Source: an archaeon (GTDB lineage Archaea; Asgardarchaeota; Thorarchaeia; Thorarchaeales; Thorarchaeaceae). From it: DNA of 64,000 nucleotides. Within the stretch, counting starts at the first letter, position 1; the number at the start of each line of letters is the position of its first letter. The notes beneath the pieces were generated by a model, which was not told the DNA's origin, searched no databases, and saw only the letters and a program-made list of their open reading frames with translations. Of this stretch, positions 33,304 to 33,669 are shown in pieces. The position numbers and the translations under genes were made by a program. The stretch lies in NCBI GenBank assembly GCA_024276825.1, contig JAJRWI010000079.1, forward strand, positions 1 to 64,000, given 5' to 3'.

Positions 33304-33669
33304 ATGTTGTCGAAAGACAGTAAGCAAGCATTTATAGCGCTATTTCCATTGGCTGCACTAGGAATAACTGCATTTTTCAATCTGGGAGAACTCCATGTTG
33401 TTCAAGGCAATATTATCGATGTTCTATATGTCTATGGATACATCAATATGAATGATACAGTTCCACTTTGGATCCTCACACTTCTTTTTGGAACGGGAGG
33501 ATATGCATTCTATTTCTTAGGAACAACTTGGGCCCAATTGAAAGCAATAGCTAATTTGTATTCAATTCCTTGGGCAGCTGCTGCGATTATTCTCGCAGCG
33601 TTTGGTGCCGAGCCAGCTGCGGCAGCTGCTGGTTTAATTGGTCTGGCATATGTCACCGTTGGGGCATAG
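33304..33669 (+). CDS. Putative circular (head-to-tail) bacteriocin-like precursor
   Basis: 121 aa from ATG 33304 (AAGGGG upstream); signal-like N-terminus; hydrophobic Ala/Gly-rich C-terminus; first gene of a SpoIIM/Yip1/ABC operon. Confidence 0.65.
   Translation: MLSKDSKQAFIALFPLAALGITAFFNLGELHVVQGNIIDVLYVYGYINMNDTVPLWILTLLFGTGGYAFYFLGTTWAQLKAIANLYSIPWAAAAIILAAFGAEPAAAAAGLIGLAYVTVGA

Follow-up and report, generated by a model that had tools for sequence, protein, structure and literature searches.

A small open reading frame (ORF) on the forward strand at 33304..33669 of the archaeal DNA analysed here (the window, a stretch of 64,000 nucleotides of contig JAJRWI010000079.1) encodes a precursor-like protein of 121 amino acids (aa; followed by a stop codon) that we consider, with a probability of roughly 0.55, to be the substrate peptide of a maturation and export system of the circular-bacteriocin type, acquired horizontally by an Asgard-type archaeon. 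Cleavage, ring closure, export and antimicrobial action are the steps that we infer for it. In each of the three loci in which it was found, the precursor gene opens an array of seven genes on one strand, in the same order, between flanks that differ from locus to locus. The order in the array is small ORF, SpoIIM/DUF95 protein, Yip1-domain protein, polytopic membrane protein of 483-494 aa, ATP-binding cassette (ABC) ATPase, second ABC ATPase and ABC-2-type permease. In the window the SpoIIM/DUF95 gene begins ten bases downstream of the precursor ORF, SpoIIM is likewise present in the cluster at both homologous loci, and the precursor is the sole small ORF that is conserved within the cluster (3/3 loci). 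The preliminary description of this ORF, made from the sequence alone, had linked its interpretation as a circular peptide to DUF95 and ABC neighbours, and such neighbours indeed accompany every homologue (3/3 loci).

The key parts of circular-bacteriocin clusters are a precursor, a large membrane protein, a DUF95 protein and an ATP-binding protein, often with an extra protein with five transmembrane segments and an accessory ABC transporter (PMC6131525, PMC13463998), and the clusters for pumilarin, altitudin A and altitudin S all combine a precursor with SpoIIM, YIP1 and ABC proteins (bioRxiv 10.1101/2025.10.31.685828). SpoIIM/DUF95 has been tied to cleavage and circularisation or to maturation (PMC6131525, PMC13463998). 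A search with the SpoIIM protein of the window (tblastn against 72,556 plasmids) yielded five matches, all of them annotated SpoIIM genes, and the four that were inspected are all located in annotated circular-bacteriocin clusters. For instance, the annotated cluster on Bacillus cereus plasmid pFORC087.2 consists of Yip1, two precursors, a 543-aa protein, SpoIIM, an ABC ATPase and an accessory ABC transporter. As judged by domain content, the parts list of the window cluster maps one-to-one onto that of the bacterial circular-bacteriocin clusters; the large membrane protein corresponds by composition only, as no homology to the bacterial B proteins was detected. A role as substrate is further favoured by four features of the sequences: no other small ORF of the cluster is conserved, the presumed loops of the precursor are nearly devoid of charge, its linker is hypervariable, and a related module (genome G010, see below) carries an unrelated small ORF in its place.

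On this basis we propose that the precursor would insert into or dock at the membrane via its conserved basic and hydrophobic N-terminus (residues 1-25), that the leader of about 36 residues would be removed beside a conserved [I/F]I[D/N]VL motif, and that the near-uncharged core of 85 residues and five short helices would be joined head-to-tail by SpoIIM/DUF95-containing membrane machinery. The 491-aa permease together with ATPase 1 would then expel the core. The second ABC module (ATPase 2 and the ABC-2 permease) and Yip1 may assist or protect the producer, and the product would be active in the membranes of competing cells.

The sequence comparison shows that the precursor is a real gene and not a chance ORF, since it has two homologues in genomes with very different GC (guanine plus cytosine) content and its length has been kept (117-121 aa). 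The homologues, at 36-42% identity, were found in an exhaustive phmmer search of 1.84 billion representatives: P0002 (119 aa, 42% identity to the window precursor, E 3e-8), encoded on a 15-kb metagenome contig, and P0003 (117 aa, 36% identity, E 3e-7), which is the copy in genome G014 of the same family and a different genus. A word-based search of 5.8 billion proteins returned the window precursor itself only, a search of 400 genomes of the phylum with the precursor profile returned nothing beyond the known members, and pattern scans of GTDB genomes and JGI metagenomes revealed no further member. The family is therefore conserved across very different GC contents but tiny (three members in the searched databases). 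Two of the 400 phylum genomes carry the precursor, the 491-aa protein has the identical distribution, and neither was found in the two genomes of the same genus that were searched.

Putative leader and core, and predicted fold, of the precursor

The ORF as described earlier, including the quoted N-terminal string and the Ala/Gly-rich tail, was recovered from the sequence. An alternative in-frame ATG at 33286 would give a protein of 127 aa (six extra residues). Since both homologues begin with MK[KR]DT and a Shine-Dalgarno (SD)-like AAGGGGA (33292-33298) is positioned 5 nt upstream of 33304, the latter is the likely start. The full precursor has a grand average of hydropathy (GRAVY) of 1.00 and an Ala plus Gly content of 29%, and past position 8 its only charged residues, His31 aside, are E29, D39, D51, K79 and E103. 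In homologue P0003 not a single Asp, Glu, Lys or Arg is found between residues 8 and 116.

The three-way alignment shows conservation over residues 1-18 (28% of the positions invariant, 72% conservative), hypervariability with gaps over residues 19-36 (0% invariant) and the strongest conservation over residues 37-55 (47% invariant), a block that opens with the motif [I/F]I[D/N]VL. A conservation step at the first core residue has been described for known groups (PMC8659200). Because of the sharp step from the linker (19-36) to the block that starts at 37, we estimate the leader/core boundary to lie between residues 36 and 37, which would give leaders of 32-36 aa and cores of 85-87 aa. The preliminary description had held the cleavage site to be indeterminable from sequence, and the alignment of homologues permits this estimate. 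It had put the core at about 60-85 aa, and the 85-87 aa estimated from the homologues are at the top of that range. The putative leader (residues 1-36; 33304..33411, forward strand) begins with a basic n-region (MLSKDSKQ), continues with a conserved hydrophobic segment in which one Pro is invariant (A-L-x-P-L-x-A) and closes with the variable linker; it is presumably removed by cleavage. The putative 85-aa core (IIDVLY...YVTVGA; 33412..33666, forward strand) contains five predicted short helices with conserved Gly/Pro turns between them, and has a predicted monoisotopic mass of 8927.75 Da when linear and of 8909.74 Da if ring-closed.

The candidate cores of the family have GRAVY values of 1.12-1.46 and net charges of -2 to 0. 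The residues at -1 and +1 of the putative cleavage site are Asn and Ile in the window, and His and Phe or Ser and Phe in the homologues; Asn at -1 followed by Ile corresponds to the gassericin-type cleavage site (PMC7452424). In an alignment anchored at the C-terminal end, the last six to seven residues follow a conservative pattern, [YFC][VL][TS][VL][GA][AE], which would fit a constrained ligation site. The terminal residues of the three members are Ala, Ala and Glu, so that ligation at a terminal Ala, as had been put forward before, cannot be general in the family.

Prediction of the precursor structure with AlphaFold2 (AF2) on the three-sequence alignment gave an all-helical model with a mean predicted local distance difference test score (pLDDT) of 58.9, and of 77-85 over residues 40-85. 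It comprises an N-terminal helix of 22 residues (4-25) and helices of 10-17 residues each at 30-43, 55-71, 76-85, 90-99 and 104-120, and the helix breaks coincide with the conserved Gly/Pro turns. At this low model confidence, a bundle of short helices seems to suit the prediction better than classical membrane spans. An AF2 model made from the single sequence was discarded (pLDDT 50, spurious strands). Comparison of the three-sequence model with the PDB gave no informative match with Foldseek and only generic helical matches with VIA-align (PDB representatives, best Z 6.3), a fold search of the ESM Atlas was uninformative (TM<=0.41), and a sequence profile search of the PDB yielded chance-level matches only (E>=0.5). 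A saposin-like fold, the compact bundle of 4-5 helices with adjacent termini that is typical of circular bacteriocins, could not be demonstrated with the model and these searches. The prediction of a complex between SpoIIM and the precursor had a score of 0.00, which counts neither for nor against binding.

Known circular bacteriocins and related archaeal modules

The clusters of the Bacillales (pumilarin, altitudin A/S, pFORC087.2) have in common with the window cluster a precursor, SpoIIM/DUF95, Yip1, a large membrane protein, an ABC ATPase and an accessory ABC transporter. The window cluster differs from them in its archaeal host, in its gene order and in that its precursor and 491-aa protein lack detectable homology to the bacterial counterparts. 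No similarity was found in an hhalign comparison of the precursor with the circular bacteriocin precursor of C. beijerinckii (probability 0.2) or of the 491-aa family with bacterial B proteins (singly and as a profile), and a BLASTP comparison of the window Yip1 with the Yip1 of B. cereus gave no match. Altitudin S provides a precedent for a long precursor (132 aa, with a leader of 56 aa and a core of 76 aa), but it has a charge of +13 and a near-neutral GRAVY, whereas the window core is nearly uncharged and very hydrophobic. The altitudin S-like peptides have been proposed as subgroup III, in which the core of 75-82 aa has a strong positive charge and a gene for an M48 metallopeptidase adjoins the precursor gene; in contrast, the putative cores of the window family are anionic to neutral and no M48 gene is present. 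Instead, a TldD/PmbA pair with host-like GC content adjoins the cluster. The altitudin S cluster likewise has no small cationic immunity gene, which shows that such a gene is not universal.

The subgroup II peptides (gassericin A, acidocin B, plantaricyclin A, plantacyclin B21AG and butyrivibriocin AR10) share with the window family a hydrophobic, weakly charged or anionic core with a GRAVY of at least 1.0. The subgroup II cores have GRAVY values of 1.0-1.06 and charges of -2 to +2 (PMC6131525, Table 1), and the cores of the window family are thus more hydrophobic (1.12-1.46). Further points of likeness are the Asn-Ile pair at the putative site in the window copy and C-terminal helices rich in Ala and Gly, for which Ala is the last residue in two of the three members. 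The differences are the lack of a PF12173 match, the length of the core (85-87 aa versus 58 aa), the variable residue at -1 (Asn, His or Ser, where Asn is conserved in subgroup II) and the terminal Glu of one member; moreover, the gaa-type cluster is compact, whereas the window cluster includes a large protein of the size of a 12-TM protein (twelve transmembrane segments), Yip1 and two ABC modules. Overall, the 121-aa precursor and the putative leader of 32-36 aa fall in the range known for circular bacteriocins (leaders of 2-56 aa) and the putative core falls slightly above it (58-82 aa).

The resemblance to gassericin A-type peptides that had been noted earlier was found to hold for the physico-chemical properties (hydrophobic, near-neutral to anionic and rich in small residues) and not for the family: none of the three members matched any Pfam or NCBIfam profile even at E<=10, including PF12173, PF09221, PF16942 and TIGR03651. 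Membership of the gassericin A family (PF12173) was therefore rejected. A six-frame search of the same genome with PF12173 pointed to a single weak and unrelated place on contig C63. The long signal-like leader, presented earlier as a contrast with the gassericin A-type peptides, is not anomalous, because 32-36 aa is ordinary for the class: the leaders of subgroup II have a comparable length of 22-35 aa, and verified leaders extend up to 56 aa (PMC6131525; bioRxiv 10.1101/2025.10.31.685828). Three different circular-bacteriocin Pfam families were among the nearest named clusters in a protein-language-model search with the whole protein and the core. The scores (0.78-0.84) were below the 0.9 mark and we take this proximity as a lead only.

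Within the same archaeal family, genome G010 encodes a module with the same seven kinds of parts (locus L063 on G010:C10, 8566-14747): SpoIIM, Yip1, two ABC ATPases, an ABC-2-like permease, a 544-aa 12TM_1-like protein and an ORF of 106 aa. The SpoIIM protein matches the SpoIIM profile A4 (E 5e-19), and the 544-aa protein is near the threshold for PF09847 (12TM_1). The small ORF (L063:11827-12144, reverse strand) encodes a hydrophobic, Ala/Gly-rich protein that ends in ...AAGGAA. It is unrelated to the window precursor (z<=1.5 against shuffles), is located on the opposite strand in another gene order, and is an orphan within the family. Comparison by hhalign of the precursor and 491-aa families with the small ORF and the 544-aa protein of G010, respectively, revealed no similarity. 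Conserved machinery combined with a swapped peptide is the pattern to be expected of a substrate. A four-gene remnant or variant of such a module (SpoIIM-Yip1-ABC ATPase-permease), without a small hydrophobic ORF, was found in L062 (G349:C134, 4629-7274) on a contig of 8.9 kb; its permease ORF has 161 aa versus 288 aa in G010.

Other archaeal SpoIIM genes have a different context. In the phylum, SpoIIM is mostly matched by the C-terminal part of long ORFs of ~900-980 aa (e.g. G000:C80:69085-69411, and in about 30 genomes of the family), a fused, 'housekeeping' form that is unrelated to the peptide cluster. In many archaea of methanogen lineages (Methanomicrobiales, Methanosarcinales and Methanobacteriota; L070-L100) SpoIIM belongs to a conserved trio of a hydrophobic protein of ~281-296 aa, SpoIIM and, often, a 477-aa protein, without ABC genes or small ORFs.

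Substrate peptide, membrane subunit or other

Several observations weigh against a circular-bacteriocin substrate. SpoIIM is also found in non-producers and is not diagnostic by itself, and most archaeal SpoIIM genes occur in other contexts; the specificity lies in the combination of cluster parts and not in SpoIIM alone. The precursor has no sequence or profile similarity to known circular-bacteriocin precursors, nor do we find any similarity to bacterial B proteins. The core of 85-87 aa would be longer than any verified core, the largest of which has 76 aa (altitudin S, with homologues of 75-82 aa; bioRxiv 10.1101/2025.10.31.685828; PMC13463998), and one homologue ends in Glu, a residue that is neither hydrophobic nor small. 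No second small ORF that could represent a small cationic immunity gene is conserved across the three loci. A mean pLDDT of 58.9 is too low to judge the fold and the proximity of the termini, and a family of three sequences is too small for covariation or selection analysis. In addition, residues 1-18 are conserved as much as large parts of the core, and the identity between precursors (36-42%) exceeds that between the SpoIIM proteins (29-31%) and the 491-aa proteins (23-28%). Both the N-terminal conservation and the fact that the precursor is more conserved than its neighbours would also fit a structural subunit.

These last observations lead to the alternative that the protein stays uncleaved, as a small polytopic membrane protein of three spans and interfacial helices, and has a structural, regulatory or immunity role as a subunit of a SpoIIM-Yip1-ABC membrane complex for the export of, or resistance to, another substance. 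We consider this unlikely, yet it accounts for the conservation over the full length, including the N-terminal hydrophobic segment, above that of the neighbours, and three of the predicted helices (4-25, 55-71 and 104-120; 17-22 residues) could span a membrane. Peptide resistance is a function of Yip1-plus-ABC systems such as YknWXYZ (YknW_fam is matched weakly, E 0.0017), SpoIIM is widespread outside bacteriocin loci, and the cluster has no immunity gene. On the other hand, there is no positive-inside signal because charges are almost absent from the presumed loops, as is most pronounced in the chargeless stretch of P0003, most helices have only 10-17 residues and are interrupted by Gly/Pro turns, and a hypervariable, gapped linker (19-36) would be unusual for a compact subunit. 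Moreover, the related G010 module has an unrelated small ORF in its place, and a full parts list of the biosynthetic type is present in the cluster.

The possibility that the product is a linear hydrophobic peptide or 'archaeocin', of which the leader is cut by signal peptidase or another protease and which is exported or inserted into the membrane without head-to-tail ligation, we rate slightly lower still. It agrees with the Sec-type n-, h- and c-regions of the leader, with the small residues at -3 and -1 (VQG/N, AHG/S and SFG/M, the slash marking the cleavage position) one to four residues ahead of the core motif, with the unconserved terminal residue and with a TldD/PmbA metalloprotease pair that adjoins the cluster here and is located 3.8 kb off in locus L015. 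However, it leaves the strict linkage with SpoIIM/DUF95, with its role in cleavage and circularisation or maturation (PMC6131525, PMC13463998), unexplained, and the conservative pattern at the C-terminus would fit a constrained ligation site. Far less probable, and disfavoured, is that the protein forms part of a surface filament, be it as a type IV pilin-like subunit with a class III signal peptide or as a subunit of another kind. A basic N-terminus directly before a hydrophobic helix and the sequence IRA/LVAL in P0003 do recall a prepilin-peptidase site, but Gln is found at -2 in the window and in P0002 (KQA/F and KQT/L) where [KR][GA] is expected, the remainder of the protein is hydrophobic and predicted to be helical instead of a soluble, beta-rich globular domain, and neither a pilin family match nor pilus assembly genes nearby were found.

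To our knowledge, nearly all circular bacteriocins come from Gram-positive bacteria, and the mechanism of their cleavage and ring closure is unsolved. No archaeal case is mentioned in genome-mining studies of circular bacteriocins or in a survey, from 2026, of archaeal homologues of bacteriocins (PMC8534725, PMC7132975, PMC8659200, bioRxiv 10.64898/2026.07.27.741052). The wider claim, that a circular-bacteriocin substrate in the window would represent the first archaeal system for head-to-tail cyclisation of this type, carried on a mobile low-GC island by an Asgard archaeon and producing the longest ring known (85 aa, essentially chargeless), has in our estimation somewhat less than an even chance of being correct. 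What is new is a candidate combination of a known type of machinery with an unrelated, longer and uncharged substrate in a new domain of life. If true, SpoIIM/DUF95-dependent ring closure works across domains, and the ring could be an inter-microbial weapon that acts in the membranes of other cells. Verification would bring a second domain of life into the class, reveal which parts of the cluster are truly universal (SpoIIM, Yip1, ABC ATPase), supply a very divergent pair of substrate and enzyme for work on the ligation mechanism, and be relevant to competition or other interactions between Asgard archaea and the cells around them. The three homologues yield concrete predictions in this respect, namely the cleavage site, the mass and the junction peptide.

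The low-GC island, its genes and its upstream sequences

The cluster is carried by a low-GC island (32723..39885), and the segment is an indel relative to genome G001 of the same genus, in which the anchors that match window positions 29965 and 39885 are just 66 bp apart. The GC content of the cluster genes is 36-38% (the soluble ATPases included), that of the precursor 43%, and that of the flanking genes 46-51%. Given the distribution (2/400 genomes), the low GC content and the indel, the cluster is a rare island that was probably acquired horizontally.

All cluster genes are on the forward strand. The precursor is followed by the gene for the SpoIIM/DUF95 membrane protein (33680..34255; 191 aa; PF01944, E 2.7e-25), the start of which is backed by SpoIIM alignment A4, and by that for the Yip1-domain membrane protein (34222..34938; 238 aa; PF04893, E 8.3e-10). 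The gene for the polytopic membrane protein (34941..36416; 491 aa; no family match) is translationally coupled to the next gene, that for ABC ATPase 1 (36413..37159; 248 aa; PF00005, E 1.1e-27). ABC ATPase 2 (37175..38116; 313 aa; PF00005, E 1.7e-27) has the lantibiotic-protection ATPase family TIGR03740 among its best NCBIfam matches, all of which are below the cut-offs. The last gene encodes the ABC-2-type permease (38097..38855; 252 aa), which has a weak match to PF12730 (E 0.006) and is conserved in all three loci.

The TldD/PmbA metalloprotease pair (29962-32722, reverse strand) adjoins the cluster on its upstream side, in divergent orientation and inside the same indel relative to G001. 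A similar pair is found in L015 (L015:1752-4558), 3.8 kb upstream of the cluster, and no such pair is present within 2 kb upstream of the cluster in G014. The pairs of the window and L015 have only 29-30% identity, a single genome can contain up to 8 matches to the family, and the GC content is host-like (46-48%). By analogy with the M48 gene of the altitudin S clusters, TldD/PmbA is a possible candidate for the leader protease. At the far end of the island, a gene for a leucine-rich-repeat protein of 149 aa (LRR_8, LRR_4; 39189-39638, reverse strand) has the same GC content as the cluster (38%).

Upstream of the precursor gene, a TATA-like TATTTAAT (33260-33267) and the SD-like element make up a region (33260..33298, forward strand) of possible expression signals, as read from the sequence. 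An Rfam scan gave no match upstream of the precursor gene or anywhere else in the window, and a scan for sigma-70 promoters and terminators, a bacterial-type scan that is not applicable to an archaeal host, remained at chance level. The homologous precursor genes are preceded by two perfect tandem repeat copies and a partial third (L009:1950-2013 and L015:8307-8364), with a repeat unit of 26 nt in L009 and of 25 nt in L015, and the array reaches to within 0-5 nt of the precursor start codon. Each unit contains a mini-ORF of three codons (ATG GTC TAA or TTG GTA TAA) as well as an SD-like sequence, GGGAGG or AGAGGA, and the core common to the units of both loci is TGGTnTAA..GAGG..CCAC. The repeats may constitute a translational or regulatory element for high expression of the precursor. 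The window precursor lacks such a repeat and has a single TAAGGGGA only.

Concerning the host, the partial small-subunit rRNA of the source genome matches the archaeal Rfam model best. The genome also encodes a eukaryote-type actin (G000:C24:59369-60472; PF00022, 435 bits), which none of the 14 control prokaryotes has and which fits an Asgard archaeon.

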